A stretch of DNA of 58,285 nucleotides from an uncultured Candidatus Saccharibacteria bacterium (GCA_964462785.1 CAYWZA010000004.1:1-58285); one strand, 5' to 3'. Shown: positions 2,435-55,241, counted from the stretch's first letter. Translations and numbers: made by a program. The notes: generated by a model not told the origin, from the letters alone.

Positions 2435-2476
2435 ACAAAAAACACCCCCAACATCTAGCTGGGGGTGTTTGCGTTT
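2435..2476 (+). terminator. hairpin between convergent genes (possibly bidirectional terminator)
   Basis: Stem aacaccccca/tgggggtgtt flanked by an A-run and a T-rich tail. It overlaps the stop of the ClpP-like gene. Confidence 0.45.
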
Positions 2477-3114
2477 CCGGTCCCCAGTGCTGTGTGGGGA
2501 ATAATTTCATCGGCAAGTCCAAGCTCTACCGCTTCAAGAGCTGGTATGTACCGATCAAATTTCATCATTTCTTTGAGATTCTTTTTACTAAATTTTGGCT
2601 TCTTTTGACGAATCCGTTCCAGATAGATGCCATACATACTCTCTTGCAGCCGTTCGTTTTCTTTTGCCGCACTCTGGAAATCTTTTGCATGACCCTTGAA
2701 CGATTCTGATCCATGATGGATCATCATTGTCGCGTGCTCATGCATACGTCGCATGTCTGCGGCTTGCAGAATGATACTTGCCGCACTCATAACATACCCG
2801 CTTGCCTCGATAGTAATCGGGCACGGCGAAGCGCGAATGCGATCATACATGCCAAACATATGATATGCATCGCCACCCGGGTTATTCATCACAATCGTGA
2901 TGGTGTTGTCTTGTTCGGCTGAAAGCGGCCAGCGCTCTAAAATGCCAAGCCCTTTTTCGAGGCGACTCCACATCTGCGCGTCCACGCCAGATTCACCGCG
3001 TTCGAGGTCAACCTGCACGCTTTCGACAATGAGTTTGCGCGAGGGGATGTACAATCCATAGTCGTAAAAGATTTTTATCTCATCGTCTTTGCCGATCGTT
3101 TTGCGAGACGACAT
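2455..3114 (-). CDS. ClpP-family (S14) serine protease, divergent
   Basis: MNNPGGDAYHMFGMYDRI, GYVMSAASIILQAA (Ser), MMIHHG (His), and a C-terminal DRYIPALEAVELGLADEII. These match the ClpP family layout. Confidence 0.72.
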   Translation of the reverse strand: MSSRKTIGKDDEIKIFYDYGLYIPSRKLIVESVQVDLERGESGVDAQMWSRLEKGLGILERWPLSAEQDNTITIVMNNPGGDAYHMFGMYDRIRASPCPITIEASGYVMSAASIILQAADMRRMHEHATMMIHHGSESFKGHAKDFQSAAKENERLQESMYGIYLERIRQKKPKFSKKNLKEMMKFDRYIPALEAVELGLADEIIPHTALGTGNANTPS

Positions 3115-3197: not shown

Positions 3198-4115
3198 CTA
3201 TGGAGCTTGCGGGAGCTCTTGTTTTTCTAAAAATCGCAAGCCGTGTGCATCAATAAACGCGTGGAGCATTTCCGTTGAAATACTCAGTGCAATGTGGGGT
3301 ACAGGACCATATGGTCCGGCGGCAACAGCGACGGTCATGCCCACCATTTCAAAGAGATTGCGGTCATTTGAAAAATGATACAATCCTCCACCGGAATTGC
3401 CGCCATATACGGGAGCTGTTGAAAGAAAGAAAAAAGACTCCCCCACTGACTCATGCGTAACGCCGAGGATGCCCTGTGTCGGAATGGGACCATACCCCAT
3501 AGGCGATCCAAGCGCCCAGACAGGGCGAAATGGCTGCAGCGCCACATCTCGCGGTGCGAGATGTGCCACATATGCCATCTGCGGCGACTGCTCAATGCTC
3601 AACAGCGCAATATCTTTTTTTTCATCATGCGCAACGACGGTCGCGCGATATTCAGTCGGCTGGGCATCCAAGCTGCTGCTCGCAGCAGTCATGTGCACAA
3701 CGACAGTGACCGAGGCTGGTGCCGCAGCACCGTTTACCACCCCGTCGGTTTTCTTTTTTGTTTTTTTCTCTGATTTTTTTGCCGGCTCAGGAGGATCCGG
3801 CTTGACGACGTGCCAGTTGGTGAATACATACGTGCGTATTTGCTTACCTGTTGCCATTGAGGCATCGCACGCTCCGTCTGGATGCGGGAGTGCCGCTTCG
3901 ACAGTGCATATTGTTGCGTTGTCGAGATATCCGGAAAAAATAATTGTACCCGAACCAATGCTTGTCTTCCGCAGTACCTGCACCGTCGGATACAGCATGC
4001 TCTTTGCCATCTCAGATTCGAGCGCAGGGTCGTTGAAGTGCGATTGCTGTACCGGCTGCGCCTCAGCTGGCTGAAACGCAATAACCGCCATGAGTGCGAT
4101 TGCATATATACGCAT
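3198..4115 (-). CDS. secreted trypsin-like (S1/HtrA-like protease domain) serine protease
   Basis: Signal peptide MRIYAIALMAVIAFQPAEA. Catalytic triad contexts are TNWHVV, DIALLSI and GGNSGGGLY. AGGAG RBS lies 9 nt upstream of ATG 4115. The ORF is open to 4172. Confidence 0.75.
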   Translation of the reverse strand: MRIYAIALMAVIAFQPAEAQPVQQSHFNDPALESEMAKSMLYPTVQVLRKTSIGSGTIIFSGYLDNATICTVEAALPHPDGACDASMATGKQIRTYVFTNWHVVKPDPPEPAKKSEKKTKKKTDGVVNGAAAPASVTVVVHMTAASSSLDAQPTEYRATVVAHDEKKDIALLSIEQSPQMAYVAHLAPRDVALQPFRPVWALGSPMGYGPIPTQGILGVTHESVGESFFFLSTAPVYGGNSGGGLYHFSNDRNLFEMVGMTVAVAAGPYGPVPHIALSISTEMLHAFIDAHGLRFLEKQELPQAP

Positions 4116-4180
4116 TGAGACTACTCCTATACGTCTATAGGCACGATAGCATGGCGAGCATACCCGCACCATCCATACGG

Positions 4181-4211
4181 AAAAACACCGCGAGCAAGCT
4201 CGCGGTGTTTT
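4181..4211 (-). terminator. intrinsic terminator closing the MotA-like three-gene operon
   Basis: Stem acaccgcgagc/gctcgcggtgt with a 4-nt loop. A T-run follows on the minus strand. Confidence 0.65.
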
Positions 4212-4229: not shown

Positions 4230-4850
4230 CTATAGATCTTGTTCTTGTACACTTCCTCCTTGACCTGGAAGAGCGCCCGGAAAATTCGGTACGCCATCCT
4301 TTGGCATCGGGGCCTCTGGAGGCAGGTAATAGAAATGCATCTCACCCTCGGGGTTGAGAGATTTCTGCCAGCGCAGCATGAGTTTTCCTCGCTGCTTGTT
4401 CTTTGTATATTCCTGCATCATCTTTCCGATCGAACCTTCGAGTTCCTCAGTGAGAGGAGTCCAGTAATACTGGGAAGTACTGCCTTTATCAACAAGGAAC
4501 TCGACAATTTTTCTGTCCGGAATTTTGCGGGGAGGGTATACGAGCACCACTCCTCCCCCTTCGTTCATACGTTGCAGCCAGTAAGGCGATGCCCTGAGTG
4601 GCTTGCCGAGCTGCGCATGCATTGCAATTGCGCCCGTAAGCATCAGTACGCCTCCCAACACAAAGGTTGTGTTTTTCGCCCACAGACCCATGCCTCGAAA
4701 ACCGAAATACATGAGACCGCATACAGCAAGAAGCGCTGCCACGCCCCAGTAATTAAAGAAGTGGTTGTACACTTCGAAATCTGGGTCGCTAAACACCATG
4801 CTCGAGTAAAGCAAAAGCTTCTCGATTAGATTCATGTCCTCCATGTGCAC
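4230..4850 (-). CDS. membrane protein (2 predicted TM helices plus C-terminal soluble domain), unknown family
   Basis: 206-aa ORF starting 3 nt after the upstream gene's stop. Hydrophobic segments are WGVAALLAVCGLMYFGF and FVLGGVLMLTGAIAM. Last gene of the operon. Confidence 0.55.
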   Translation of the reverse strand: MHMEDMNLIEKLLLYSSMVFSDPDFEVYNHFFNYWGVAALLAVCGLMYFGFRGMGLWAKNTTFVLGGVLMLTGAIAMHAQLGKPLRASPYWLQRMNEGGGVVLVYPPRKIPDRKIVEFLVDKGSTSQYYWTPLTEELEGSIGKMMQEYTKNKQRGKLMLRWQKSLNPEGEMHFYYLPPEAPMPKDGVPNFPGALPGQGGSVQEQDL

Positions 4851-4853
4851 CTC

Positions 4854-5615
4854 CTATGACGAACAACGGTTGAGCATGTGGTTGTATTGCAGCCGCAAAC
4901 ATTCCGCATCGGAATGGGACTGCGATACGACTTCCCCTTGCTCATTTAATGTAAAGCACTGGACGGGAACTTCTTGCCCTACCCATTCAAGCTTCACCTC
5001 CGTAGAAAGGATCTCTTTCGGTTTTTCTACGATGGATTCGACTCCTGCCGGATTTTTTTGCAGACGAATCCGCATCTTTACCGGGATCACCTTGAGCGAC
5101 GACCGATTGCCATAGAGATGTACGCTGACGCAATACGTCCCTGCGGGAAAACCGCGGCTGGTAGTCACCTCATAGTTCGCCGGATCCGCAAAGGGAATGC
5201 AGCCGGACATCATGGTGCTTGCCGTCTGGTAGATACAGCCCAAGTCATCTCGATTGTGGTCGAGTGTCTTGCTGTGTCCATTCGAGTACCCAACAGGCTT
5301 TTCAAGATCTTCGGCAAGACGCCCGCGGTATTGCACCCACAAGTCGACGTCCGTCCATATCAGATCCTGCTGACCTGTGGCTGTGTTTGTGACCTTGGGG
5401 TCAGTTACGTTCCAGTACGCCTCGAAAATAACGTTGCCCGGACTGACGGCAGCCAGGCTCGGATTTTCAACTTGCTTTTTTGGGTCGCTGACCGCGGCAA
5501 GCAAAGTGAGCATGAGTGCCGCAAACGCCACAATTGAAACGATGAGCATGTCGCGAATGGCGGTGTTGATACCGTCTCCCCCGAATGCGTCTTCCGACTC
5601 GTAGCTGTCCATCAT
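4854..5615 (-). CDS. single-pass membrane protein, possible ExbD/TolR/MotB-type partner with an unrecognised Cys-rich ectodomain
   Basis: The N-terminal TM helix is preceded by Asp (INTAIRDMLIVSIVAFAALMLTLLA), like the proton-relay Asp of ExbD/TolR/MotB. A ~190-aa ectodomain with 7 Cys follows. The gene sits 13 nt downstream of the MotA-like gene. Confidence 0.5.
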   Translation of the reverse strand: MMDSYESEDAFGGDGINTAIRDMLIVSIVAFAALMLTLLAAVSDPKKQVENPSLAAVSPGNVIFEAYWNVTDPKVTNTATGQQDLIWTDVDLWVQYRGRLAEDLEKPVGYSNGHSKTLDHNRDDLGCIYQTASTMMSGCIPFADPANYEVTTSRGFPAGTYCVSVHLYGNRSSLKVIPVKMRIRLQKNPAGVESIVEKPKEILSTEVKLEWVGQEVPVQCFTLNEQGEVVSQSHSDAECLRLQYNHMLNRCSS

Positions 5616-5628
5616 TGTGCGGGTCTCC

Positions 5629-6276
5629 TTATGTCTTGTGCTTGAGCGCCCGGAATATCCGGTGCTTCAAGTCGTATGCGCCACTTCTAGCGAAACGATA
5701 CATCTGGCGCACGATGGTATAGACAATGATACCAATCATTGATGTGCCGAAGAGCGCAAGATGCCGTGCCATCTCAGGCAATTTCGCCATCACGTCTTCG
5801 GGTTTGATTCCAGTGAGGACACCGAATGTTTGCGTTAGTCCGTCAATGGTACCGATGATGCCCACAATGACGGCGAGGTTGGCGATGTGCGCAAGCGTAT
5901 CAATATGCTTGCCCAGCGTATCGCGGACAATCTCCTTAAGGAGGTCTCTATCGTGATCCTTGTCTTCGACCAGCGGAAGTCCGAAGAGGTCTATGACCTC
6001 TGGCGAATCCATGCCACCTGGCCGCTTGACCGCATTGAGTCCTCGCGAAATTTTCCAAGTCACCCACAGACACTTTGCGCAAGCCGCCAAAAGAAGGACG
6101 GCAAAAGCAAGATTGTAATGAATCTTGAATGTTGCCAACCAATGCTCGATAATTCCCGCGTTCCACAGATACCCGAACAGGATAGCTGTGGCCATGATGA
6201 GTAGCAACGCGTGGAAAAATTGACGGTAATCATGATCCTTGGTCTTTGCGACCGGACCAAGCTTGATCGCTACCAT
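5629..6276 (-). CDS. MotA/TolQ/ExbB-family proton-channel protein
   Basis: Four hydrophobic helices. Signature LAVIVGIIGTIDGLTQTF ... HLALFGTSMIGIIVYTI matches the GLLGTVxGMxxxF / ALxTTxxGL core of the family. Confidence 0.65.
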   Translation of the reverse strand: MVAIKLGPVAKTKDHDYRQFFHALLLIMATAILFGYLWNAGIIEHWLATFKIHYNLAFAVLLLAACAKCLWVTWKISRGLNAVKRPGGMDSPEVIDLFGLPLVEDKDHDRDLLKEIVRDTLGKHIDTLAHIANLAVIVGIIGTIDGLTQTFGVLTGIKPEDVMAKLPEMARHLALFGTSMIGIIVYTIVRQMYRFARSGAYDLKHRIFRALKHKT

Positions 6277-6543: not shown

Positions 6544-6744
6544 ATGAGTTCAGGAACAATTGCCCGCCTCACGGATCGTGGTTACGGCTTCATTAAGCCA
6601 GATGGTGGAGAGAAAGATCTCTTCTTCCATGCCAAGGATCTCCAGGAAGTGCGCTACGACGATCTGCGCGAGGGAGACAAAGTCTCTTTCGAGATCGCCG
6701 AGAGCCCAAAGGGCCCGAACGCAGTTAGCGTTCGCCGTGGTTAA
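6544..6744 (+). CDS. cold-shock protein (CspA family)
   Basis: GTIARLTDRGYGFIKPDGGEKDLFFHAKDL carries the RNP1/RNP2-like cold-shock-domain motifs. About 66 aa. Confidence 0.9.
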   Translation: MSSGTIARLTDRGYGFIKPDGGEKDLFFHAKDLQEVRYDDLREGDKVSFEIAESPKGPNAVSVRRG

Positions 6745-6753
6745 TCCGCGGTC

Positions 6754-6791
6754 AAAACAAAAACAGCGCCTCACGGCGCTGTTTTTGTTTT
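6754..6791 (+). terminator. intrinsic (bidirectional-looking) terminator after csp
   Basis: 17-bp stem aaaacaaaaacagcgcc/ggcgctgtttttgtttt with loop tcac. Confidence 0.7.
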
Positions 6792-6797
6792 CGGCAC

Positions 6798-6918
6798 TGC
6801 AGGCAGTGGGGTGAGGTCTAAGCGCGCATGCACGCGTGTTGAGACAGCGCAGTGGTGATACTGCCCGAAGTTACCAAAAGCGATACTGTGAGCGAAGACC
6901 TGCACCCCTCTGCCTGCA
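6798..6918 (+). ncRNA. candidate structured RNA, unclassified motif, copy A
   Basis: A ~22-bp closing stem (6798-6819 / 6896-6918) has a bulged G. It encloses a core that is near-identical to 33550-33607. Stem sequences differ between copies but both pair. G-U pairs favour the plus strand. Confidence 0.4.
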
Positions 6919-6938
6919 TCAGCAGAACAAGAACCCCG

Positions 6939-7601
6939 TTACCAATCTATCGGCTTCTCGCCATGCTCTTTCAGGTATGCATTGGCTTTGCTGAAATGCT
7001 TGTTGCCAAAAAAGCCGCTCGCGGCAGAGAAGGGTGACGGATGCGCGCTCTCGAGCACGCAGTGCTTGCTGCGATCAATGTGCGCGCCTTTTTGTTTTGC
7101 ATAATTTCCCCAGAGCATGAACACGAGATGTTCGCGCTCGCTCGACAACGCGCGCACCACAGCGTCGGTGAATTGCTCCCATCCCTTTCCTTGATGACTT
7201 CCCGCCTGCGATGCACACACGGTCAACGTTGCGTTCAAAAGCAGCACGCCTTGCTTTGCCCAATGCAAAAGATTCGCATCCGCGTGCGCCGCGCGCCCCA
7301 GATCGCTTGCAATTTCCTTGAAAATATTTTGAAGCGATGGGGGAGTCGCGACGCCGTCATCAACAGCAAAGCAGAGCCCATTCGCCTGCCCCGCTCCGTG
7401 ATACGGATCCTGCCCGAGGATAACCACCTTCACCTGATCAAATGGGCACATATCGAACGCCCGAAAAATGCGCTTGGGCGGTGGAAATACTACCCCGCGT
7501 GCATACTCCTTTTTTACAAATGCGCTGAGGGTCGGAAAATACGGCTCCTCAAATTCTCGCGCTAACTGCTCATGCCATGACGGTTCGATCTTGATTGTCA
7601 T
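6939..7601 (-). CDS. ung: uracil-DNA glycosylase (family 1)
   Basis: VVILGQDPYHGAGQANGLCFAV and HPSPFSA motifs. The start is set at MTIKIEPSW. The ORF is open to 7730. Confidence 0.9.
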   Translation of the reverse strand: MTIKIEPSWHEQLAREFEEPYFPTLSAFVKKEYARGVVFPPPKRIFRAFDMCPFDQVKVVILGQDPYHGAGQANGLCFAVDDGVATPPSLQNIFKEIASDLGRAAHADANLLHWAKQGVLLLNATLTVCASQAGSHQGKGWEQFTDAVVRALSSEREHLVFMLWGNYAKQKGAHIDRSKHCVLESAHPSPFSAASGFFGNKHFSKANAYLKEHGEKPIDW

Positions 7602-7703
7602 GATGCGATGGTAGCACACCCCTACACCATGTGTGTGTTGCAGTGCGTTGTCGAGCAACCTGTGGCATGCTATAGAGCAGATAGATAAGCATAGGAGCAA
7701 CTC

Positions 7704-26683: not shown

Positions 26684-29356
26684 CTACTTCACAAACGTGC
26701 TGGTGATGGTCTTTAAGTTTCCTGCGACATCTCGCGCTCGTATCCATGGCGTGCGCGTGCCGGCAGACATGCCTGCATACGACCAGATACCCTTGCATGT
26801 GGTCGTGGCGGCACAGGATGCGATGAGCGCGCCGGAGCTATTGGTCCTTCTGATAACTATTGATGTCACTCCCACATTATCGATTGCGTGTACGGCGATA
26901 TCTACGCCGCTAAATACCTTCTCGCCATACTTGGGAGTAAGGACGGTGACTATGGGCGGGGTTTTATCAATCACTTTCACCGAAATGACGCTCGATACTC
27001 CGACGTTCCCCGCGGCGTCATATGCCTTGCTTTGCAGCGTGTGCGTGCCCATGGTCGTCGAGGTTCCCGTAAACCAGACGAACGAATAGGGAGCGAGGGC
27101 ATCAGTCAAAAACAGAGCTCCATCTTTCCACAACTCCACTTTGGTTACTGCCTTGTTGTCTGAAGCGGTTGCGGTGATTGTGCTTGTTGCTGATATGGTC
27201 GCTCCATTGAGCGGTGCGGTGATCGCAGTCGTGGGCACGATGTTATCGGGCGGAACGGGAGCAATGGAGGTATAGGATGCCGACACTGATTTTTGGTGTG
27301 CTGGTATCAGCGGATCCGCGGCGCTCGTTGTAATAACATAGGTGCCGGTCAGTGCGTTTGCGTGGGGAGTGACGGTCAGTGTCGAAGTCGCAGATTTGCC
27401 TGGCAGTAGTGTGACGGTGGAGGTTGAGAGCGTACCTATCCATCCCGTGGGCAGCGCGCTCGACAAAGAGAATGTGGATTTCCCGCACAACACGTTGTCC
27501 GCATTGCTCAATGTAAGCGTGTAGTTCTTCATGACACCCGGAGCGCCGCTTTGTGACAGCGGCGAAACTGAAAGCCCCGGAGCGGACGGAACGCACTGCG
27601 GAGCTCCGAATTGCACGTTAAGGGTGACGCTGTCTGCGGTGTGGCTCATTTGCGTGACGGTGATGCCATTGGTGGGGTCGATGAAAGAAGTACCGTCTGA
27701 CAGTGGAGCATTGAGCGCGTTGTTGTCGCCAGGGGTGGTATCAATCAGCTGTGTCTGAGGAAACACGGGATAGATAGGGCTAATTGGATCGCTATTCCAT
27801 ATATGAATACTCGCTCCATTCAAAAATGCCGAGGGCAGATTTGTGTCGAAACCAATCGCCTTGCGATAGGAAACATAGTACCACTCGTTAGTATCCGCTT
27901 TTCGTATTTTAAGTATTTTAATGCCTGCCTCGTTCGTTTCTCCATGAGTAATCGTATACGCGCCGTTGGTTGTTACGGTTTGCATTTGACTTGTCGGGGA
28001 AAGCCACCCCACTCCAATTTTCTCAGGACCGTTAAAATGATTGTAGTGTTTCCAGCTATCGCCCATGACGCTCGACGGATCTCCATACTCGTCGATGGTG
28101 CAGTTTGTATATACGTGAACTGCGCTTCCCCCGCACTTGAGCCATCGAGCATGCATTGAACTAAGCGCGTGACCCATTTCGTGAGAAAACATACTTGCGT
28201 TCATGTAGGAGAAACTCCATCCGATGGTGACGGACGTGCCATCTCCCAATAAACTCCACGCGACGTCAGTGCAATCTGCAGGGCGACTATTCGCAATGTA
28301 AAATTTATGTGCATAGCTACTCACATCAATCCCTGCCGCGATAGCCATCTGATCTGCCGCCGGTCCCCACAAATCGTATGAATTGGGCCAGCACCCTGCA
28401 TTCGTATACGGCAAGGTGTACCATCCCGCCACATCGCCCTCAATGGACACTGCGCCAAACGATGTCTCCTTATAGAAAGTGCTGGTTGAACTGCTGTATG
28501 TAAACCAGGTTTGTGCAACTTGTGCAGGTGTCCATGGCTGCGTAACGCTGTTGGTGAAGTTTACTAGTATGACGAGGGTTTTGTGCGCCGCGGGAACGGC
28601 GGTCGTGGCAGCGCTGACGACCTGCGTGCCTCCGGTGCCATCCAAAAATTCGATTGGCACCAATTCGTTATCGATGCGTTTTCCATGCACCTTTACTGTT
28701 CTGCCTGTTATAAATGATGCGGGGGCATCACCCACAAAATGCACATGGTATAACTTTCGCCCTTGCGACGTTTCTACCTCAAGCTCATGGCGAGTGTATG
28801 TCGGCCCTTCGTCAAAACCATCAACATGCATGACGAGCGCCGTACCTTGCACATCAACATCCTCTTCAATAAGAGCTTGGAGCTGCGAGGGCAATTGCTT
28901 TCGCACATCATCTGACAGCGCGTGAAGCAGGAAGTTGCGCGGATTATTCTTTGCCTCTGCAACCAGTGCCGCTTTGCGTGTATGGGCAAGCGTCGATACC
29001 TCCGCGCTGATTTCTTTCCCCAAGGAACCCGGCTTCGTTGCGCGTAAGAATTGCGCATTGAGTTCGGCAAGCGCAGCTTGCGCCTGCGCCGCTCCTTGCC
29101 CCCCTTCACTAAATGTTACCCGGGGGATACTTGTGGCAGAAGCTGCCTGCACGGCGTGCGTCGCGTAGAAAAAAACCGCTACCAGCACGGTAACGTGTAC
29201 AAGCGACACGTGCGGAATACGATGCCACGCTCCGTATAGCGTACTTTTTTCAAGAAGGCGGTCATGTATTTGTTCCATATTGGGTGGTCTGTGCACACCA
29301 ATATAGTAAGCACCCGGAGTCTTCGAAATCTCTGTGTGAGTATGAGTATAGTGCAC
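26684..29356 (-). CDS. large secreted metzincin-type zinc metalloprotease (M11/gametolysin-like) with C-terminal Ig-like/CARDB-like domains
   Basis: HEMGHALSSMH fits the HEXXHXXGXXH spacing. An N-terminal hydrophobic anchor is present. The C-terminal half has repeated beta-rich Ig-like modules. An alternative start MEQIHD lies at 29278. Confidence 0.65.
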   Translation of the reverse strand: MHYTHTHTEISKTPGAYYIGVHRPPNMEQIHDRLLEKSTLYGAWHRIPHVSLVHVTVLVAVFFYATHAVQAASATSIPRVTFSEGGQGAAQAQAALAELNAQFLRATKPGSLGKEISAEVSTLAHTRKAALVAEAKNNPRNFLLHALSDDVRKQLPSQLQALIEEDVDVQGTALVMHVDGFDEGPTYTRHELEVETSQGRKLYHVHFVGDAPASFITGRTVKVHGKRIDNELVPIEFLDGTGGTQVVSAATTAVPAAHKTLVILVNFTNSVTQPWTPAQVAQTWFTYSSSTSTFYKETSFGAVSIEGDVAGWYTLPYTNAGCWPNSYDLWGPAADQMAIAAGIDVSSYAHKFYIANSRPADCTDVAWSLLGDGTSVTIGWSFSYMNASMFSHEMGHALSSMHARWLKCGGSAVHVYTNCTIDEYGDPSSVMGDSWKHYNHFNGPEKIGVGWLSPTSQMQTVTTNGAYTITHGETNEAGIKILKIRKADTNEWYYVSYRKAIGFDTNLPSAFLNGASIHIWNSDPISPIYPVFPQTQLIDTTPGDNNALNAPLSDGTSFIDPTNGITVTQMSHTADSVTLNVQFGAPQCVPSAPGLSVSPLSQSGAPGVMKNYTLTLSNADNVLCGKSTFSLSSALPTGWIGTLSTSTVTLLPGKSATSTLTVTPHANALTGTYVITTSAADPLIPAHQKSVSASYTSIAPVPPDNIVPTTAITAPLNGATISATSTITATASDNKAVTKVELWKDGALFLTDALAPYSFVWFTGTSTTMGTHTLQSKAYDAAGNVGVSSVISVKVIDKTPPIVTVLTPKYGEKVFSGVDIAVHAIDNVGVTSIVIRRTNSSGALIASCAATTTCKGIWSYAGMSAGTRTPWIRARDVAGNLKTITSTFVK

Positions 29357-41402: not shown

Positions 41403-43667
41403 CTATAATTTGATTGTTTTAAGCCTGAGTGAATTCCCCACGACCGAAACGCTTGAAAACGCCATTGCGGCACCGGCAAATACGGGCGAAAGCGTCCAGC
41501 CGAAGATCGGGTAGAAGAGCCCGCCTGCAAGCGGTATGCCGACGAGATTGTAGATGAACGCCCAGAAAAGATTTTGCTTGATGCCGCGCATGGTCATCTT
41601 CGACAGCTTGATCGCCTTCGCGAGCTTCGAGATATCGCCGTGGAGGAGCGTGATGCCCGCCGATTCGATGGCGACATCGGTTCCCGTCGCCATCGCGATC
41701 CCGACATCGGCTTGCGCAAGCGCGGGAGCATCGTTGACACCATCACCGGCCATAGCGACGACATGCCCTTTTGACTGCAATTCTTTTACTACTCTGAGCT
41801 TGTCCTGGGGTAGTACCTGCGCTACGACCGTTTCGATACCAACTTCGCGCGCGATATATTCAGCCGTGTTTTTATCGTCCCCCGTGAGCATGGTGACCGT
41901 GACGCCGAGCGCATGCAATGCGCTGATCGCATCACTTGCGCCTTCTTTCACTGCGTCAGCGACGTATGCAACGGCAAGAACGCGCGTTTTATCTGCAAGG
42001 ATGACGGGTGTGCGGCCCTTCTTCGTTTCCGTCGCAAGGAGCGCAGTGTCGAAGACAATACCGAGGTCCTGTACCAAGCGCTCGTTTCCGGCATAGTAGG
42101 TGGCACCGGCGACAACTCCCGTCACGCCCTTGCCTTTGAGATTCTCAAAACCGGTAATATCCTTTTTTGCTATGCCATGCTCTTTCGCATGGTTCAATAT
42201 CGCGTGGGCGATAGGATGCTCGGATTTTTGTTCCAAAGTCGCGAGGATAGAAAGCACTTCTTGCTCGCTCATTGAACTTTGATTTGCAATCTCCACAAGC
42301 TCCGGTTTTCCTTTCGTGATCGTGCCTGTTTTATCTACGACAACCGCTGTTACCTTGTAGAGCTTTTCAAGCGTCGCCGCATCCTTGACCAAAATGCCGG
42401 TCGATGCACCCTTCCCGACGCCCACGATGATCGCTGTCGGAGTTGCAAGCCCCAAAGCGCACGGGCACGCTATGACAAGAATCCCCACGAACGAAGCGAG
42501 CCCGAGTGAGAGCGCCACCGGAAAGCCGAGGTATGAAGTTCCCACGGATAGCCAAGTTGCAAGAGAGAGGAATGCGAGCACCAGGACGATTGGAACGAAT
42601 ATCGCGGATATCTTATCCGCTAGGGCCTGTATCGGTGCCTTGCTCCCTTGTGCGTCCTCGACCATCTTGATAATGTGGGAAAGCAAAGTTTCCGAGCCGA
42701 CTTTCGTTGCCTTGAATATGAACGAACCGTCAGTGTTTACCGTTCCCGCAACAACGGCGTCACCCGCTTTTTTCTCGACAGGCATCGGCTCCCCGGTGAT
42801 CATCGCCTCATCGATGAACGAAGAGCCCTCGACCACTGCGCCGTCCACCGGGATGCGTGAGCCTGGTTTTACGATGACGTGGTCACCGTGCACAACTTCG
42901 CCTATGGGAATCTCCATCTCGTTCCCACTGCGCACCACGAGCGCCGTCCTTGCCTGCAAGGTGAGGAGTTTTTCGATCGCGTCTCCAGTCTTAAGCTTGG
43001 CGCGCGCTTCAAGAAACTTTCCAAGCGCAATGAAGGTGATGACGACGATTGTCACGTCGTAATAGGTGTGCTCAACATTGAGATATGCTGAGAGCGGTGC
43101 CTCAAATGCCGTCACGACGAAGCTGTAGAGATACGCGGCGATGGTGCCAATGCCGATCAGCGTATCCATATTCGCCTTTCCATACCGGAGGAAGCGGTAT
43201 ACGCCAAGCAGATACGGTTTGCCGACGACGAAAAGGACGTAGGTCGCCATCAAGGGCAGCAGGTGGTGGATGGGCTCGCTTAGTGTGTGCGGCAACGGCG
43301 ACAGATATCCGAATTGGACAAGCATGTCGATTCCCATGATCAGAAAACTGAACGCCGCAAGCGGAAGTGCCGAGAGGACCAAGAGCCACTGGCTCTGGAG
43401 TTCACGCACCTTTTCCTCCTTTGCGTGATTTCCGCCCGCTTCCGTGCTCTTTGCAGCTTCTGCGCTCAGTGTGTAGCCAAGCGGCTCGACCACCTTCGAC
43501 ATATCGCCGAGCGTTATGATGCGTTCGTCATACGAGATATTCGCCCGCTCAGTCGCATTGTTTACTTCCACTTTTTCAATGCCTTTCTGCTTTTTGAGCG
43601 TACGCTCGATGATGCTTGCGCACGAGGCGCAGTGCATGCCGGTGACGTTAAGTGTTGCTTGTTGCAT
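41403..43667 (-). CDS. copA: copper-translocating P1B-type ATPase
   Basis: N-terminal [12 protein letters not shown], the CPC motif ([12 protein letters not shown]), DKTGTIT, and [10 protein letters not shown]. Confidence 0.93.
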
Positions 43668-43672
43668 ACCGA

Positions 43673-44575
43673 TTATTCTCCATGCTCGGCGAGGATGGGA
43701 AGCCGCTGCCAGGCGTGCCCTCCGTCTGCGCTTTTATAAAGGCTATTCGCCTGCGTGAGCAAGTACATCAGATCGGGATTCTGACGATAATACGAGATGA
43801 AGAGCGGCGTCTCTCCGGAGAAATTTTCAGGAATCGATTCCCATGTCGCGCCTCCGTCTGTACTCTCTGCGAGACCATTTTTCTCTGACGCCGACAAAAT
43901 ACTTTGCCCGTCCGGACTCACCGCGCTTGTCGCCACAAATCCGTCGAACAGCTGTTTCCACGTCGTACCGCCATCGATGCTCTTGAACAGACCGAGCGGA
44001 CTTGAGGCATAGAGCACCTGCGCGTCTTTGGTGTCGGCCGCAAGGTGCACGACAGGAAACTCCGTGGCAGTCTTGCTCCACGACACCCCGCCATCCGTCG
44101 TTTTCTGCAGATCGCCCCTGAACCAACCATACGCGATATTCGGGTCAACGGAGCTCACCACCATCGCGTGGAAGTCGACGGGCCCGCCGAGACCATCCGA
44201 TATTTTCTCCCAACTGAAGCCACCATCCGCCGATTTCTGGAAACCGATGTTGCCGCCATAACTGGGGTGGCCGCTGCTAAAGAAGGTATTGGAATCCGTC
44301 GGATGCGGCGAGAAGCCCATATAGTCGTCACGCTTCGCGCCCACCTGGTACAGATTCTTGTCGTCTTTCAGCAGGAGAAGCCCATAGTGGGTCGCGATGT
44401 ACACCTTGCTCGAATCATTCGGATCAACCGCAAGCCCGTGGCCGTGCGAGATCGCCTGAACGGGGATGAGCTCTTTCGCCGTGGGTTCGCCTCCCGCACC
44501 CGAACGTGACGCAAACCATGCCCCTCCGACGAGAAGAACGACTGCCGTCAGTACCATGATGATTTTTGTTTTCAT
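43673..44575 (-). CDS. secreted BNR/Asp-box repeat beta-propeller-like protein
   Basis: Repeated S/TxDGGxxW boxes: ADGGFSW, TDGGVSW, IDGGTTW, TDGGATW, ADGGHAW. An N-terminal anchor is present. Confidence 0.62.
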
Positions 44576-44576
44576 A

Positions 44577-44789
44577 TCATTGTGTAAGTTCTACTTTATA
44601 ATCTCCGACGCTTTCAATCTCTTTCTTCAGCGTGTCCCAATTGAGCTGATCGGTGTGTTCGATATCCGTTTTTCCTGTCACATAATCCACGGAACACGAC
44701 GCAATCTCTTTGAAGTCGCCGCACACATCCTCGATGAGTGCCTTGCACGCCTTGCAATGAGTGCCTCGGATCGTGATGGTTGTCTTCAT
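44577..44789 (-). CDS. heavy-metal-associated (HMA) domain protein, CopZ-like
   Basis: 70 aa. IRGTHCKACKALIE is a CxxC metal-binding loop. Confidence 0.72.
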   Translation of the reverse strand: MKTTITIRGTHCKACKALIEDVCGDFKEIASCSVDYVTGKTDIEHTDQLNWDTLKKEIESVGDYKVELTQ

Positions 44790-45031
44790 ACTTGTTTTGC
44801 ATCGTCTTTACCTGCGTCCTGCGCACCATGCCCTTTATTCATCATCGCCATCATCAAAACCATCGAGAGCGGGCAGATGAGAAAGACGAGGAATCCTGAA
44901 TGCTTGAGAAGATGCGGTGCGAATACGTATGCGAGCACAATAACAGCGCCAATGCCGACAATGACTCTCGGATTCAGGCAGCACTTGAGCATTTTTTGGA
45001 ATTTCATAGCAGCTTGTGAATGGTTAAGCAT
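44786..45031 (-). CDS. small membrane protein (DUF2933-like)
   Basis: FLICPLSMVLMMAMMNKGHG is Met/His-rich. It overlaps both neighbouring genes by 4-8 nt. Confidence 0.45.
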   Translation of the reverse strand: MLNHSQAAMKFQKMLKCCLNPRVIVGIGAVIVLAYVFAPHLLKHSGFLVFLICPLSMVLMMAMMNKGHGAQDAGKDDAKQV

Positions 45032-46766
45032 CGATGACGTTAAACTGCAGCATCTTGGAGCCCATGCTGCAGGTCGCGTACACGGTGCCCGCCTGAGTCG
45101 GCGTGAATGCGAGCGTGTTTTTGCCGAGCCTCATAGGTAAGGTGACTTCGTACTGTGGGATCACCATGACCGACATGCACCCGCCAAGCGGCACTTTCGC
45201 GTCCATCTCCACTTCCACGGGGACACCCTTCTTCACCGTAAGGGTGTTCGGATAGAAGCCGCGTTCAGCGGTGACAGTGAGCGAGAATTTCTGCGCCTCC
45301 GGTTTCGGAGGGCAGCTCGTAATGCTTGGGTCACACGTGGGAATCGTCGAGGGGTCAGCTTCAAGCGGTGCAGCAACAGTGCCCGTGGTATTCGGCAGCA
45401 CGGTGAAGCCCGAGCCGCGCGTCATCATACCCATGGAGCAGTTGAATGGAATCTCTCCCGCCTCTTTGGGCGTGAATCGGATCGTGGTGATGCCGTTCGG
45501 AGAAAGATATTTCGTAACACCGGTCGTCGGCATCACGATCACTTGCCCACAGCCGACTGCATTCCTGCCGTCTATTCTCCACTCCATCGGTATGCCAGCC
45601 GTTACGGTGAATCTGTTTGGTGAGTACGAGTAGCCGTCCACGCGCATCTCCACTATCTGTTTTCCAGCCACCACGTTCGCCGCCGGCTGCGCTTGAGCGA
45701 TGCCGTTGCTCTGGAACATGCCATCCACGTTCACTCCCGCAAGCGCAAGTCCGTTGTTGATGTTGTAGACGGCCAAGAGGACAACGAGTGCTCCGGCGAA
45801 TTTGATGAAGTGCCGTTGAAATGCGCCCCTGGTGAAGCTCGTGATCGCCGAGAGTGACGCGAGAGCCGGTACGGTGCCGAGCGCAAACATCAACATCGTG
45901 AGGGCACCCACCTTCCAATCGCCCGTCGCAAGCACATAGAGCTGGAGCGCTTGCGTGAATCCGCAGGGCAAGAAGAATGTCAATGCGCCAAGCGTAAACG
46001 GAGCAGCCTTGCTATCGCTTCCCGTGAGGTCGTGAATTTTGTGGCTAAGGAATTTCGGCATCTTGGGCGTGAATCGCCGCATCCAGGGGAAGAGATGCAA
46101 TATCTGGAATCCGAGGATGAGCATGACGACGCTCACGAAGACCATGAGATATCCGTTCACCTGTGCCGAAAGCGTGATGACCGAACCCAATGCGCCCACT
46201 AACGCACCGAGCACCGTGTATCCGATGACTCGCCCGATGTTGAAGTAGATGTGCGGCTTGAATTTCTGCATGCCGGTAAGCTCCGGGTGGAGCTCGCTGT
46301 GCCGTTCGGACACTGCGAGCAAGAGCCCGCCCACCACCGCCATGCAGGTGGAGAAAGCAGCGACGACCCCGATGAGGAACACAAGCCCGTAGCTCATGGT
46401 CTCCGAGATAGCGAATGACGGCAGGATATCGAATCCGCGAAGCACATAATAGAGCGAGACGACGATGAGAAACGCGCCACCGATCTCTAGATAGTCGCGC
46501 CAGCTATTTTTGTGCGTTCCGGCACCTGCTTTGTGCCGATCCTCCCATGACGACACGGAATAGCCATCCGTCTTTACGGACGCGTCGAATTCGTGCAGCG
46601 GGATGTGTTCTCGCGAAACGAAGACCTCAACACTGCCGGAGGTGAAGCTTGCATGCACCTTTTCGACGCCCGGAATCTTCTTGAACTTGCGCTCGATCAA
46701 CACCTCGCAGCTCGCGCAATGCGTGCCATGAACTTTAAGTCTGAATTTTTTAAGATGATTACTCAT
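45024..46766 (-). CDS. HMA domain, polytopic membrane domain (TauE/UreH/DsbD_2-like) and two cupredoxin-like domains fused in one protein
   Basis: N-terminal VHGTHCASCEV, about 6 TM helices with FLPCGFTQ, and C-terminal beta domains with the Cys/Met ligands CSMGMM and CSMGSKM. Confidence 0.6.
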   Translation of the reverse strand: MSNHLKKFRLKVHGTHCASCEVLIERKFKKIPGVEKVHASFTSGSVEVFVSREHIPLHEFDASVKTDGYSVSSWEDRHKAGAGTHKNSWRDYLEIGGAFLIVVSLYYVLRGFDILPSFAISETMSYGLVFLIGVVAAFSTCMAVVGGLLLAVSERHSELHPELTGMQKFKPHIYFNIGRVIGYTVLGALVGALGSVITLSAQVNGYLMVFVSVVMLILGFQILHLFPWMRRFTPKMPKFLSHKIHDLTGSDSKAAPFTLGALTFFLPCGFTQALQLYVLATGDWKVGALTMLMFALGTVPALASLSAITSFTRGAFQRHFIKFAGALVVLLAVYNINNGLALAGVNVDGMFQSNGIAQAQPAANVVAGKQIVEMRVDGYSYSPNRFTVTAGIPMEWRIDGRNAVGCGQVIVMPTTGVTKYLSPNGITTIRFTPKEAGEIPFNCSMGMMTRGSGFTVLPNTTGTVAAPLEADPSTIPTCDPSITSCPPKPEAQKFSLTVTAERGFYPNTLTVKKGVPVEVEMDAKVPLGGCMSVMVIPQYEVTLPMRLGKNTLAFTPTQAGTVYATCSMGSKMLQFNVIDA

Positions 46767-48473: not shown

Positions 48474-50111
48474 ATGCTCAAACCAAAATATTTTCTATAC
48501 GCGCGCAAATCTACAGAGGACGACGACCGCCAAGTGATGAGCATCGAAGCACAGCTTTTTGAGCTTCGAGAGTATGCGCGCAAAGAAAATCTTGAAATCC
48601 TAGCGGAGTTTCAAGAGTCGAAAAGCGCAAAGACCCCAGGGCGAGAGATTTTTGGTGAACTGATGGCTCAGGTTGAGCGAAGTGAAGGTGTAGGTATCTT
48701 GGCGTGGCATCCCGACCGATTGGCTCGTAACTCCATCGACGGCGGCCGCATCGTGTATGGCGTGGACACCCGAAAGATTGTGTCTTTGCGTTTTCCGACA
48801 TTTTGGTTTGAGCCTACCCCGCAGGGTCTATTCATGTTGCAAGTGGCGTTTGGGCAATCTAAATATTATTCAGACAATCTATCGGAAAACATCAAGCGCG
48901 GCGTCCGCCAGAAACTGCGTCGAGGCGAATGGTTGAATCGTGCTCCCTTTGGCTACCAAAACAACCCCCGTATTCGCAATATCGAGCCACATCCTACAAA
49001 CGCACGGATTGTGAAAATAGCGTACGAAGAATACGCCAAAGGGACGCATGCGCTCGTCTCTCTGGCGCAGTTTCTGGCGGACTTGGGCGTGTTTACGAAA
49101 AACGGGACGCCACTTGCCAAAATTTCCATCAAAAGGATGCTCACGCACCGGGTATATCTCGGATTCGTGAAGCATGGGACGGAATGGTTTGATGGAAATT
49201 TTGAACCGATCCTTTCTCCCGCTTTGTTTGAAGCCGTGCAGAGCATTGTCAGTGGCAAGGCGCGGCCTCGCCATCGCAAAATCAAGCACGATTTTCCGCT
49301 CACCGACCTCTTCCGCTGTGCTGAGTGCAGCGGCATGATTTCCGCCCAATGGGCAACTGGAAAGAGTGGTGGACGATATCGCTACTATCGTTGCTCCAAA
49401 AAGCGCGGCCGCTGCACCCAACCGTATGTGCAGGAGTCGGAGCTTGCAGACAAAATACGGGCACGGCTTCAAACAATCTCGCTTTCCGATCGCTACACCG
49501 ACCACATGCTCAAAATGGTGGATGAGTCGGAGAAAACAGACAAAACAGCGTCGCAAAGCGAGATTCACCATCTTTCTTCTCGAATCAAAGCGGACGAGGG
49601 GCGCATGGAAAAATTGGTGTCGGCGTATTTGGACAACGACGTACCGAAAGACATCTATCTAAAGCGCAAGGACACGATCATGCGCTCACTCGCCGCTTTG
49701 CGGGAAGAACTGAAAGATGTTGAACGCGGGAGAAAGAATCGGGTCGAACCCTTGCGGGCGTTCGTTCTCGACTTGAAACAAGCCAATGTTCTCTCCTCGT
49801 CTGAGGATTTGCATGAAATCAAGAGTTTCGTCAAAAAAATCGGAACGAACCCCATTTTGCGAAACAAAACACCCCACCTTTCTTTTCCCTCACCCTATCA
49901 ATTCGTCGCGCAGCGACGCCACCTTTTGCCGCCACCCCCTGCCGCGTCGCTTCGCGACGCCGCGCTCACGGCGGGTGAAGTTTCTATCTGCGGAGAGAGA
50001 GGGATTCGAACCCTCGATCCGGTTTCCCGGATGCATGCTTTCCAAGCATGTGCTTTCGACCACTCAGCCATCTCTCCACTCTTTATAAACGGAACCGATG
50101 CGGTCATTTGA
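48474..50111 (+). CDS. large serine recombinase
   Basis: N-terminal resolvase domain (YARKSTEDDDRQVMSIEAQ), recombinase domain, Zn-ribbon CAECSG...YYRCSKKRGRC and a coiled-coil. The last ~83 codons run through repeat R2 and antisense to tRNA-Ser. Confidence 0.85.
   Translation: MLKPKYFLYARKSTEDDDRQVMSIEAQLFELREYARKENLEILAEFQESKSAKTPGREIFGELMAQVERSEGVGILAWHPDRLARNSIDGGRIVYGVDTRKIVSLRFPTFWFEPTPQGLFMLQVAFGQSKYYSDNLSENIKRGVRQKLRRGEWLNRAPFGYQNNPRIRNIEPHPTNARIVKIAYEEYAKGTHALVSLAQFLADLGVFTKNGTPLAKISIKRMLTHRVYLGFVKHGTEWFDGNFEPILSPALFEAVQSIVSGKARPRHRKIKHDFPLTDLFRCAECSGMISAQWATGKSGGRYRYYRCSKKRGRCTQPYVQESELADKIRARLQTISLSDRYTDHMLKMVDESEKTDKTASQSEIHHLSSRIKADEGRMEKLVSAYLDNDVPKDIYLKRKDTIMRSLAALREELKDVERGRKNRVEPLRAFVLDLKQANVLSSSEDLHEIKSFVKKIGTNPILRNKTPHLSFPSPYQFVAQRRHLLPPPPAASLRDAALTAGEVSICGERGIRTLDPVSRMHAFQACAFDHSAISPLFINGTDAVI
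49860..49993 (-). repeat. 134-bp perfect inverted repeat, copy 2 (R2, inverted)
   Basis: Exact reverse complement of 48326-48459. Its last 3 nt overlap the 3' end of tRNA-Ser. Confidence 0.95.
49991..50077 (-). tRNA. tRNA-Ser (anticodon GGA)
   Basis: 87 nt. Acceptor stem GGAGAGA/UCUCUCC, anticodon arm CAUGC-UUGGAAA-GCAUG, long variable arm UCCGG-GAAA-CCGGA, T arm GAGGG-UUCGAAU-CCCUC, discriminator G. No CCA is encoded. Confidence 0.9.
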
Positions 50112-53692: not shown

Positions 53693-54871
53693 CTAAATTT
53701 CATTCACCCGCGGTTGCAGGCGCACTGTCGCAGTATCAGTATGCGGCAATCCCGCATCATCAAAGCAGCGTAAGGTATACGTGGTTGTTTCGAAGAGTGG
53801 GCTCGAGTTGATACCGCCAATGGGGGACATGAATGTCGAATTGATGACCAAGTGCCCAAAGGAATCAACTCCGTTAGAGCCGCTCACGCGTGCGCACGAA
53901 GAAACGCCTGTCGCTGTCCAGGAAACACGCGCGCGCGAACCGCGCCGCACCACAGGAGTAGCTTCTATAGAAAGGGTCACCGGTCGTATGGAAATACCCG
54001 AGCCATCACCGCTTCCAGGAGTAAATGTGAATTCGCTGGTGTCGGATGCGCTCGAACAATCCGGGTCTCCGCCAATCCCCCAGTCCACAAGCCCGTCGCC
54101 ATCTCCGTTGTCGAGTCCATCGCTACATTGCGGAAGTGTCCCTCCGGGTTGTGTTCCAGGCGGTATGCCCGATGCGTCGGTACAAGTGAAAGTAAAACTC
54201 GTCCATGCCGAATAGAGATCCGTGCTGTCTTGCGCCCTCACGCGAATAGTCCTCGGTCCCTCTGTGGAATATGTGTGCGTTGCCGAAATCGGTATGCCTG
54301 ATGCCGCGTAGCCCGATGCCGGCACATAGGTGTTCTCATCGTTGTTTGCTATGCCATCGCCATTGCTATCGACGGATGCGTCCCAGTCGATAATGTAGTG
54401 GATGCCATCACCATCGGGATCGGTTGAGGTGAGTATGACGGTGTACGGCGTATTGATCACACATGCTCCGCTTCCAATGATGCTGGGAGTTGTCGGTGGT
54501 TGATTAGCGGGGGTATCAGTGGGGCATTCGCTATCGCCTGGGGTACAGGGGGTTTCAGTTGGCGGGTCGTCGGTCGGAGGGGGTGCTTGTCTGGTGCTGC
54601 CAGTCAGCGTCGCTGCAGCTCCACAAAAAGCACTACCGATGCCAAAAAAAGTGGACTGCCCACTGCATACCGTTCCTTCGCCGCTGGCACCTAGATATGA
54701 ACCAAACAGATTCTGGCTATACGCTGCAAGACCCTGATAAACCGATGTGACTCCACTTACCGCACGCGTGAATATATTATTCTGAAACTGCGCATGCGCC
54801 GATGTCGGCATCAAAAGGAGCGTCACTATAAGTAAAGGGATGAACTTCGATGAGGGTGTGTTGTTAATCAT
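53693..54871 (-). CDS. secreted protein with PKD/Ig-like domains
   Basis: Signal peptide KFIPLLIVTLLLMPTSAHA. A Pro/Thr linker is followed by DPDGDGIHYIIDWD ... THTYSTEGPRTIRVRAQD (PKD-like). The ORF is open to 54994. Confidence 0.6.
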   Translation of the reverse strand: MINNTPSSKFIPLLIVTLLLMPTSAHAQFQNNIFTRAVSGVTSVYQGLAAYSQNLFGSYLGASGEGTVCSGQSTFFGIGSAFCGAAATLTGSTRQAPPPTDDPPTETPCTPGDSECPTDTPANQPPTTPSIIGSGACVINTPYTVILTSTDPDGDGIHYIIDWDASVDSNGDGIANNDENTYVPASGYAASGIPISATHTYSTEGPRTIRVRAQDSTDLYSAWTSFTFTCTDASGIPPGTQPGGTLPQCSDGLDNGDGDGLVDWGIGGDPDCSSASDTSEFTFTPGSGDGSGISIRPVTLSIEATPVVRRGSRARVSWTATGVSSCARVSGSNGVDSFGHLVINSTFMSPIGGINSSPLFETTTYTLRCFDDAGLPHTDTATVRLQPRVNEI

Positions 54872-54938
54872 AGGTAAATGATACCCCTCACACCCACTGT
54901 GCGCAGAGGGGTATGTGGATATCCTGTTATTCCCTTTT

Positions 54939-55241
54939 TCAATTCTGAGCCATGTGTACTGCAATGCCGATATGTTTTTCGATGGCAGATACACGATCCA
55001 TTAGTAGATCAATTTCCTTTGCATAACCTAACACGCTACGTAGCTGTTCGGAGAGATCTGCGATTGCTTTAGTGTTCGCCTCGATGGTTCGCGTATGTGC
55101 ATTGATTTGGGCTTGCAAATCTAAGTGAACGGCTTGTAATGCCTCCTTGGTCGCCATTCGGTCCCGAATACCTGAGACATCCTCCTGAATTTCAGTAACG
55201 ATTTCCAAAATAGTTTTTATACTTTCATCCATATTGGTCAT
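54939..55241 (-). CDS. coiled-coil hypothetical protein
   Basis: 100-aa ORF with a heptad-like helical sequence. It lies downstream of the giant surface protein gene. Confidence 0.4.
   Translation of the reverse strand: MTNMDESIKTILEIVTEIQEDVSGIRDRMATKEALQAVHLDLQAQINAHTRTIEANTKAIADLSEQLRSVLGYAKEIDLLMDRVSAIEKHIGIAVHMAQN

Follow-up and report, generated by a model that had tools for sequence, protein, structure and literature searches.

The described branches of the MotA/ExbB superfamily, namely the flagellar stators, the Ton and Tol systems, the gliding/type IX secretion system (T9SS) motors and Zorya, each couple the membrane potential to a different extracytoplasmic job. In GldLM, a motor of the 5:2 class, work is transmitted outward by the long, largely beta periplasmic domain of the inner subunit (PMC9389320, PMC8986121). 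A survey of MotAB relatives lists non-flagellar clades "with unknown function" and does not describe the family treated here (PMC12505986). That family is represented by three adjacent genes, g1, g2 and g3, on a 58,285-nt stretch of DNA deposited under an uncultured Candidatus Saccharibacteria bacterium (GCA_964462785.1, CAYWZA010000004.1:1-58285; the whole stretch is referred to as the window), and the protein families to which their products belong are designated F1, F2 and F3. With a probability of roughly 0.55, the triad is read here as an ion-driven motor of the envelope that is complete in itself and belongs to the MotA/ExbB (stator) class, with a new B subunit and a third subunit.

Sequence comparison places g1 in the MotA/TolQ/ExbB family. 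Its score against Pfam PF01618 (MotA_ExbB) lies above threshold (E 1.6e-6, 28.3 bits, with the cut-off at 22.9 bits), only a short loop separates the second of its four hydrophobic segments from the third, and the protein carries GIIGT, the GxxGT of the family, in the third transmembrane (TM) segment and FGTS in the fourth. Against the NCBIfam TolQ equivalog it reaches 16.9 bits, far under the cut-off of 221, so that it is a family member and no TolQ orthologue. The single sequence barely matches the sequences of the PDB (E about 0.6), and a profile of 16 F1 members finds TolQ as the best of them (E 7.5e-8), together with ZorA-type structures (E 6e-6 to 1e-4), MotA (E 1.8e-5), ExbB (E 6e-5) and PomA (E 1e-3). 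The alignment of F1 with E. coli TolQ by hhalign (90% probability, E 1.4e-6) covers the last two, ion-path helices; the GxxGT Thr falls on the Thr of TolQ GLFGT and the Thr/Ser of TM4 on the Thr of TolQ ALIAT, positions that we take to be T145 and T178 of TolQ. The equivalent ion-path threonines of ExbB are T148 and T181. Both Gly residues of the motif are near-invariant in F1, its Thr is kept in 127 of 138 aligned sequences, and the ion-path position of TM4 is occupied by Thr, Ser or Asn. F1 proteins with reliable gene calls or annotation measure 113-240 aa and have no long tail, those of phages being 113-145 aa; the one from the temperate Sinorhizobium phage 16-3 has four hydrophobic segments and hardly any cytoplasmic loop. 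These are the smallest A subunits met in this analysis.

The second protein, g2, shows the features of the B-subunit class, with a single N-terminal TM helix, a conserved Asp and a gene directly following that of the A subunit. A short cytoplasmic N-terminus leads to Asp22 at the cytoplasmic edge of the helix, just ahead of the hydrophobic stretch and within an AIRDML motif, and is followed beyond the membrane by an ectodomain of ~190 aa. Of the 118 cluster representatives covering the column, 115 have Asp here, as do all 150 non-redundant locus sequences (81 alphaproteobacterial, 15 CPR/other and 54 viral; CPR, candidate phyla radiation). At the motif level only, it stands in register with the ZorB TM segment and with the Asp of the TolR TM segment (PLLDVLL), presumably D23. 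An AlphaFold2 model from a 50-sequence alignment (predicted local distance difference test, pLDDT, 86.5; predicted TM-score, pTM, 0.77) was used, a run with two sequences having been unusable at a pLDDT of 41.7. It consists of a helix at 14-42, two short linker helices and then beta strands interrupted by one 3-residue helical turn. Foldseek returned 0 PDB matches at E <= 1e-3 for this model, and PDB and BFVD together gave generic beta-sandwich, BACON-like and Ig-like matches only, at TM-scores of <=0.45, to which no fold family could be assigned; as modelled, the ectodomain shows a new all-beta fold.

The same picture emerges from the profiles. ExbD/TolR (PF02472) is matched neither by g2 at E <= 1 nor by 50 of its relatives at E <= 0.01, and no Pfam match to OmpA (PF00691) or MotB_plug (PF13677) was obtained for g2 or these 50. 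With DUF2135 (PF09906), g2 stays sub-threshold (20.9 bits versus a cut-off of 22, over 29 residues); the model matches 2 of the 50 relatives, and some Azospirillum orthologues bear the name "DUF2135 domain-containing" in UniProt. Near-invariant in the F2 ectodomain are W68, D89, D91, W93, G109, R122, D123, D124, G126, N147, E149, R154, G159, H166 and E215, and the polar residues among them look like a metal- or ligand-binding site. Of the six Cys residues of the g2 ectodomain, C162, C220, C239 and C251 are conserved, within the CPR-type subgroup only.

The third protein, g3, combines two hydrophobic segments with a small extracytoplasmic domain and a C-terminal tail rich in Pro. Searches of Pfam and of the PDB sequences gave no match to it; it shows no similarity to E. 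coli TolA and evolves fast, with 20-22% identity between two close CPR subclades as against 71-73% for g1. A motif in its tail, F-Y-x-x-P-x-P-x-x-P-x-K, is nonetheless conserved in the alignment, and many F3 C-termini (residues about 171-204 of g3) end in Y/F-x-x-P-G/E-x-x-A/V-COOH after the invariant PxPxxPxK. The tail has the look of a docking peptide, for instance for the PDZ domain of an HtrA-like protease or for the F2 ectodomain. Neither F2 nor F3 has a model in Pfam, NCBIfam, PHROGs or PADLOC, and PHROGs matched neither the window triad proteins nor the phage proteins.

All three genes have homologues elsewhere in the same order and are thus real genes rather than chance open reading frames (ORFs). 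A ribosome-binding site, AGGAG, precedes the ATG of g1, and another, AAGGAG, overlaps the g1 stop codon in the 13 nt that separate g1 from g2. The third ORF was listed as 4230-4850 (206 aa). Since its GTG start sits within an AGGAGG site and the orthologues begin at the next ATG (4844), g3 most likely has 204 aa, with a gap to g2 of 9 nt rather than 3 nt. The hairpin closing the unit escaped a simple terminator scan and was revealed by folding and shuffling (58 nt, -33 kcal/mol, z = -6.5, 0 of 200 shuffles folding equally well). An earlier reading of the window from its letters (the sequence-only reading) had proposed three minus-strand ORFs with gaps of 13 and 3 nt and a strong terminator at their end; ORFs, terminator and first gap are borne out, while the second gap is to be replaced by the 9 nt given above. 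It had also recognized g1 by its MotA/TolQ/ExbB motifs, pointed to the Asp before the g2 helix and to an ectodomain resembling neither ExbD/TolR nor the OmpA-like domain, and left g3 without a named family, all in agreement with the present results. Of the two Pfam families it named for the pair, the one for A subunits is matched and the one for B subunits is not. Its description of the g2 outer domain as Cys-rich holds for the count of six and has to be narrowed as to conservation, which for four of them is confined to the subgroup named above.

The triad at first seemed rare, a word-indexed protein search having yielded 1-4 close relatives of g1 and g2 only, and a genome scan with CPR-specific N-terminal motifs having yielded no matches. 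This apparent rarity was a limit of sensitivity, because exhaustive HMMER and pattern scans found many relatives: 291 cluster representatives of g2 in the former and >590 confirmed loci in the latter, conducted on one genome per GTDB species. The best 80 of these >590 loci all belong to Alphaproteobacteria or unclassified Proteobacteria, and cultured carriers include Azospirillum, Skermanella, Arenibaculum and Roseomonas. In essentially all 80, the g2 homologue is flanked by a MotA/ExbB-like gene before it and a g3 homologue after it, stop and start codons often overlapping, with many F1/F2 pairs sharing a few bases. Wherever the contig permits, the order F1-F2-F3 is kept in the 80 GTDB loci, in about 80 viral loci and in 13 CPR/other metagenome loci, the metagenome contigs including a 330-kb groundwater one labelled Patescibacteria and another labelled Candidatus Paceibacterota. 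The triad is present in several Patescibacteria lineages. The four close relatives L001-L004 say little on this linkage by themselves, because the wider synteny is conserved there as well. Profiles built from alphaproteobacterial members alone match g1 (49 bits), g2 (182 bits) and g3 (18 bits) of the window, the F3 profile reaching 31 bits with the g3 orthologue of L002, and among the CPR test proteins they match triad proteins only. On the evidence of gene order and profiles, F1-F2-F3 is shown to be a conserved unit. In public databases its members go by "MotA/TolQ/ExbB proton channel family protein" (F1), "hypothetical protein" or "DUF2135 domain-containing protein" (F2) and "hypothetical protein" (F3).

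Several genomes hold more than one copy. Two paralogous triads lie ~24 kb apart in Azospirillum genomes (L025 and L047, on the same contig of Azospirillum sp. OGB3), Azospirillum megaplasmid records have two triad places each, and an alphaproteobacterial metagenome-assembled genome (L079, 5292-12543) has two to three copies inside 7 kb. A 161-kb metagenome contig of 36% G+C content (L101, 4276-13949) combines the triad, with an F1 of 175 aa, with a trypsin-like protease, a Toprim primase and a Volactin-family actin homologue.

The window itself is a segment of a bacterial chromosome (rpoB, rpoC, hisS, bacA, ung and a class II ribonucleotide reductase are present). Its RpoB shares 75-78% identity with proteins under the names Candidatus Kaiserbacteria/Parcubacteria (<=91% with unnamed metagenome proteins), which confirms a Kaiserbacteria-like CPR bacterium as the host. 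CPR bacteria are thought to lack an outer membrane (monoderm). The sequence-only reading had likewise guessed at a CPR host, which is upheld, and had asked whether the triad is kept as a unit in relatives, which it is. Its view of an orphan peculiar to this genome has to be abandoned in the face of a family spanning Alphaproteobacteria, Patescibacteria and phages, and the presence of the triad in a probable monoderm, which it saw as odd, is one end of a broad distribution. Its interpretation as a whole is supported in part.

Relatives of g2 are also found on 89 IMG/VR contigs, 80 of which were examined; they span 29-70% G+C, most have F1-F2-F3 in order, and some, where T4 neck and gp15 proteins are encoded nearby, are T4-like myoviruses. 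Among 50,697 GenBank phage records, 29 carry the triad, and all 29 phages infect Rhizobium or Sinorhizobium: temperate phage 16-3 and its relatives, RHph_TM3_3_14B, X2_25, the 68-kb N3_19 group and the T4-like P10VF, RL2RES, RL38J1, AF3 and N34-type phages. The window g2 matches p040 of 16-3 directly (E 6e-7). Additional genes can stand within the trio, namely the small p039 (6690-6980) and p041 (7510-7695) in 16-3 (L184) and a Seg-like homing endonuclease between F1 and F2 in RHph_TM3_3_14B (L187, 4228-4986). In the literature searched, no earlier account of a stator-type motor encoded by a phage was found, and full-text searches, limited to the same library, gave no description bearing on DUF2135, phage MotA/TolQ/ExbB proteins, CPR stators or p036-p042 of 16-3.

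Table 1. Positions of the triad, its terminator and the associated protease in the window (coordinates in nt) and in other carriers.
Feature	Position	Strand	Remarks
g1/F1, MotA/TolQ/ExbB-type channel subunit, 215 aa	5629-6276	-	Pfam PF01618 and profile matches
g2/F2, B-subunit-like protein, 253 aa	4854-5615	-	one TM helix and all-beta ectodomain (model)
g3/F3, third membrane protein, 204 aa (most likely extent)	4230-4844	-	always follows F2 in relatives
Intrinsic-terminator-like hairpin	4181-4211	-	13-bp stem, 4-nt loop, U run; closes the three-gene unit
Secreted trypsin-like serine protease	3198-4115 (ORF 3198-4172)	-	Pfam Trypsin_2, E 4.7e-13
Trio of phage 16-3	p038 (F1, 138 aa), p040 (F2), p042 (F3)		
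Trio of phage RL2RES	gp110-112		amid replication genes
Protease, window clade (L001, L093, L094; Patescibacteria)	directly downstream of triad		
Protease, L096 (metagenome, taxonomy unassigned)	4 nt upstream of F1		
Protease, L091 (L091/92; metagenome, taxonomy unassigned)	about 0.7 kb downstream	opposite	
Protease, L101 (metagenome, taxonomy unassigned)	2.2 kb upstream		
Protease, L088/89 (Patescibacteria)	directly upstream		
Protease, phage 16-3 (p036)	upstream of F1		one small ORF (p037) between
Protease, RHph_TM3_3_14B	directly upstream		
Protease, RHph_N3_19	2.7 kb downstream		

The sole recurrent neighbour of the CPR and phage copies is a gene for a trypsin-like/HtrA-like protease, which is adjacent or nearby in four CPR/metagenome groups and three phage types, at differing relative positions (Table 1). 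In the window it forms a separate transcription unit past the terminator of the triad, its probable start being ATG 4115 with an AGGAG site of its own, from which a signal peptide MRIYAIALMAVIAFQPAEA is read, and a ClpP-like gene comes next. In 21 of the 80 viral contigs the protease gene lies directly upstream of F1, on the same strand and 0.9-1.8 kb upstream of F2. Of the 29 phage records with F2, 25 also have a p036-like protease, which is found in only 47 records of the whole collection, for a chance expectation of ~0.03. This gene, which the sequence-only reading had passed over just downstream of the triad, is the best available clue to the output or target of the triad, a circumstantial one, and its product would be a functional partner. 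The surroundings of the triad in the window are rich in proteases, with an M48 peptidase at 677-1639 and the ClpP-like gene at 2455-3114 in addition to the trypsin-like one, and M48 and trypsin genes also adjoin the triad in the Patescibacteria contig L094.

Neighbour clustering of the 80 alphaproteobacterial loci revealed no conserved fourth gene, the clusters being spurious high-GC ORFs or synteny of close relatives. No TonB, Tol-Pal, flagellar, gliding or Zorya-type genes were found among the annotated neighbours or the recurrent neighbour clusters, and none recurred among >170 loci; no TonB partner or TonB-dependent receptor was seen among the ~25 of 64 window ORFs scanned with Pfam or among the annotated neighbours of relatives, and tblastn with E. 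coli TolQ, TolR, TolA, TolB, Pal and CpoB gave no matches in the window. The absence of such partners beside the triad, which the sequence-only reading had asserted, stands within this scope.

A stator-type motor fits these data because the ion-path residues of F1 are intact, a B-type partner with an invariant Asp is adjacent and a third membrane-anchored protein completes the set. In such a motor, g1 would form the ion-conducting outer ring and g2 the inner "axle", its membrane-edge Asp taking up and releasing a proton or a sodium ion; a 5:2 stoichiometry and the assembly of the two would be expected from family membership and gene adjacency. The new all-beta domain would stand in for the ExbD/TolR or OmpA-like domains, and g3, as a membrane-anchored extracytoplasmic subunit, might act as an adaptor in the manner of TonB or TolA, although it is unrelated to them. 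Because the A subunit hardly has a cytoplasmic domain, the force would be delivered outside the cytoplasmic membrane, the target most likely being an envelope protein or wall material that is handled jointly with the secreted trypsin-like protease. Since the triad is found in CPR bacteria, in diderms and in phages, its output should not be specific to the outer membrane as in Ton and Tol, and the mobile module would presumably serve envelope remodelling in CPR bacteria, Alphaproteobacteria and their phages.

It has to be kept in mind that a number of observations weigh against this reading. Asn replaces the GxxGT Thr in 11 of the 138 F1 sequences. On the side of the B subunit, g2 has no ExbD, TolR or MotB profile match, hhalign of F2 with E. 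coli TolR gives a non-significant 6% probability over 21 TM columns only, and the sole PDB sequence met by the F2 profile, the ZorB TM segment, is not significant either (E 0.57). The acidic cluster of the ectodomain could serve ligand or metal binding, or even catalysis, and then imply a different output, and ion flow, force generation and rotation would be expected of the triad from family membership only. The link with the protease is qualified as well: in the window a terminator lies between the two; no protease gene adjoins the triad in 79 of 80 chromosomal loci of Alphaproteobacteria, as tested with 30 separate queries, or in 59 of the 80 viral loci; and the phage lineages that have both all infect Rhizobiaceae and draw on one gene pool, because of which the co-occurrence in 25 of 29 records overstates independence. 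Sulfitobacter phage pCB2047-C carries the protease beside lysis genes and has no triad, so that a common "accessory region", rather than a common mechanism, may lie behind the linkage. That phage (L188, 2541-5769) has an endolysin, a holin, two small genes, the trypsin-like protease and an exonuclease in succession; because it has the protease-exonuclease frame of the 16-3-like phages without the triad in between, the triad appears to be an insertable cassette.

Part of the same evidence would also suit a gated ion channel instead of a force-generating motor, in which g1 and g2 conduct protons and sense or dissipate the membrane potential while g3 and the ectodomain act as the gate, for lysis timing or host shutdown in phages and as a stress switch in cells. 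Unplugged MotAB-type stators, as in MotB plug mutants, do leak protons, which counts for such a channel, as do the minimal phage F1 proteins without a cytoplasmic domain, the faint, sub-threshold match of F3 to a phage holin family (E 0.009) and the position of the module a few kb from endolysin/lysis genes in 16-3-like contigs and in RHph_TM3_3_14B. In the T4-like rhizobiophages, however, the triad lies among early and replication genes and not among lysis genes, and a role in a lysis cassette was for that reason rejected as the main explanation. The module is moreover kept stably among housekeeping genes in alphaproteobacterial chromosomes, sometimes in two copies, and in small CPR genomes, because of which a lethal device dissipating the proton-motive force would not be expected, and the large conserved ectodomain with its invariant polar cluster suggests a specific external partner. 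A channel is thus considered unlikely.

The same low likelihood is assigned to a Zorya-like function in anti-phage defence or superinfection exclusion, in which a disturbance of the envelope by an incoming phage would be sensed by the MotAB-type complex, the effector being the periplasmic protease, and phages would carry their copies to exclude competitors. ZorA-type proteins are among the closest structural relatives of F1, ZorB is the one PDB entry touched by F2, and the module is mobile, patchy, multi-copy in some genomes and phage-borne, including a temperate phage, 16-3, where it adjoins the immunity region. None of the three window proteins matches a PADLOC defence model, though, F1 lacks the long ZorA-type tail, no ZorC/D/E-like nuclease or helicase is nearby, strictly lytic T4-like phages carry the module too, and the locus of the window and its relatives is set in conserved housekeeping synteny (uracil-DNA glycosylase, cold-shock protein, HisRS) and not in a defence island. 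A divergent but ordinary Ton or Tol-Pal energizer with TonB/TolA and outer-membrane partners encoded elsewhere, as might be thought of on account of TolQ being the best-scoring solved relative of F1 and of the three-gene layout with a Pro-rich third protein paralleling exbB-exbD-tonB and tolQ-tolR-tolA, is very improbable and was rejected, given the lack of an ExbD/TolR Pfam match and the different all-beta fold of F2, the dissimilarity of F3 to TolA with its two hydrophobic segments and C-terminal Pro-rich stretch, the absence of Tol-Pal genes from the window and of TonB/Tol-Pal partners from the annotated neighbours and recurrent neighbour clusters of relatives, and the occurrence of the module in CPR bacteria and phages.

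Within the preferred reading of an envelope motor, a narrower and in itself quite unlikely version would make the triad a membrane-potential-driven "pulling" machine for the ATP-free extracytoplasmic space, which feeds envelope proteins to the secreted protease: the beta-domain of F2 and the tail of F3 would grip such proteins and then unfold them or present them to the trypsin-like enzyme. If true, this would be an ion-powered counterpart of the AAA+ unfoldase-protease pairs, shared by CPR bacteria, Alphaproteobacteria and phages, and in phages it could serve to strip or remodel the host cell envelope during infection. The motor reading as such, if it holds, would add a further branch of ion-driven motors, with minimal A subunits, a new B ectodomain and an unrelated third subunit. 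The triad is no isolated oddity but an envelope machine that is widespread and has gone unstudied, and cultured Azospirillum, Skermanella and Roseomonas as well as the genetically tractable 16-3 (p036-p042) give laboratory access to it, so that the role of a motor of CPR cells could be addressed through the Azospirillum and 16-3 members.

Elsewhere in the window, the 3' end of a large serine recombinase gene (Resolvase, Recombinase and Zn ribbon; 48474-50111, plus strand) overlaps a tRNA-Ser(GGA) on the opposite strand (49990-50077, minus strand), which may mark the edge of an integrated element. At 41403-46766 on the minus strand, a copper-type P-ATPase gene lies two small genes upstream of one for a fusion protein of HMA, DsbD-like membrane and cupredoxin parts. 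Surface-type proteins of 433-894 aa are encoded at 26684-29356, 53693-54994 and 55278-57962 (minus strand), with Big_7, NPCBM-associated, PKD-like (sub-threshold) and Ig-like domains, and fit the episymbiont lifestyle of CPR bacteria.

When the triad is set against the known motors, TolQ-TolR-TolA comes closest in the A subunit, F1 resembling TolQ most over the two ion-path helices, both conserved Thr positions included. The B gene likewise follows the A gene, and its product has one TM helix that bears an Asp at the cytoplasmic edge; a third membrane-anchored extracytoplasmic protein comes next. The triad differs from Tol in that F1 has four hydrophobic segments and hardly any cytoplasmic domain, the F2 ectodomain of ~190 aa is all-beta and not of the TolR fold, F3 is unrelated to TolA, TolB, Pal and CpoB are absent from the window, and carriers include CPR bacteria and phages. 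With ExbB-ExbD-TonB it shares the A-subunit superfamily, the three-gene logic and a Pro-rich segment in the third protein as in TonB; in F3, however, this segment forms a short tail at the C-terminus, behind a folded domain, and not a spacer, the TonB C-terminal domain is lacking, F2 has no ExbD Pfam match, and no adjacent TonB-dependent receptor was found.

The flagellar stators MotAB/PomAB offer a further parallel, in that MotA too has four TM segments and the Asp of F2 stands at the position equivalent to the essential Asp of MotB, which we take to be D32 in E. coli. In contrast to these, F1 is devoid of the torque-generating cytoplasmic loop, F2 of an OmpA-like peptidoglycan-binding domain and of a plug profile match, and no flagellar genes were seen around the triad; we know of no flagella in CPR bacteria or phages. 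ZorAB, as a non-flagellar MotAB-type pair of mobile and patchy distribution, is similar in its mode of occurrence, and ZorA-type structures are among the best PDB matches of F1 just as the ZorB TM segment is the only one touched by F2. Here the differences lie in the long ZorA tail, the ZorC/D/E effectors, the PADLOC match and the ZorB peptidoglycan-binding domain, all of which the triad lacks, and in its being carried by phages themselves. GldLM, finally, is more distant, GldL lying outside PF01618 with its key acidic residues placed differently, GldM being far larger, and neither T9SS genes nor a sequence or fold match having been found here; it nevertheless provides the precedent for an inner subunit with a beta-rich outer domain, which is the arrangement proposed for g2.

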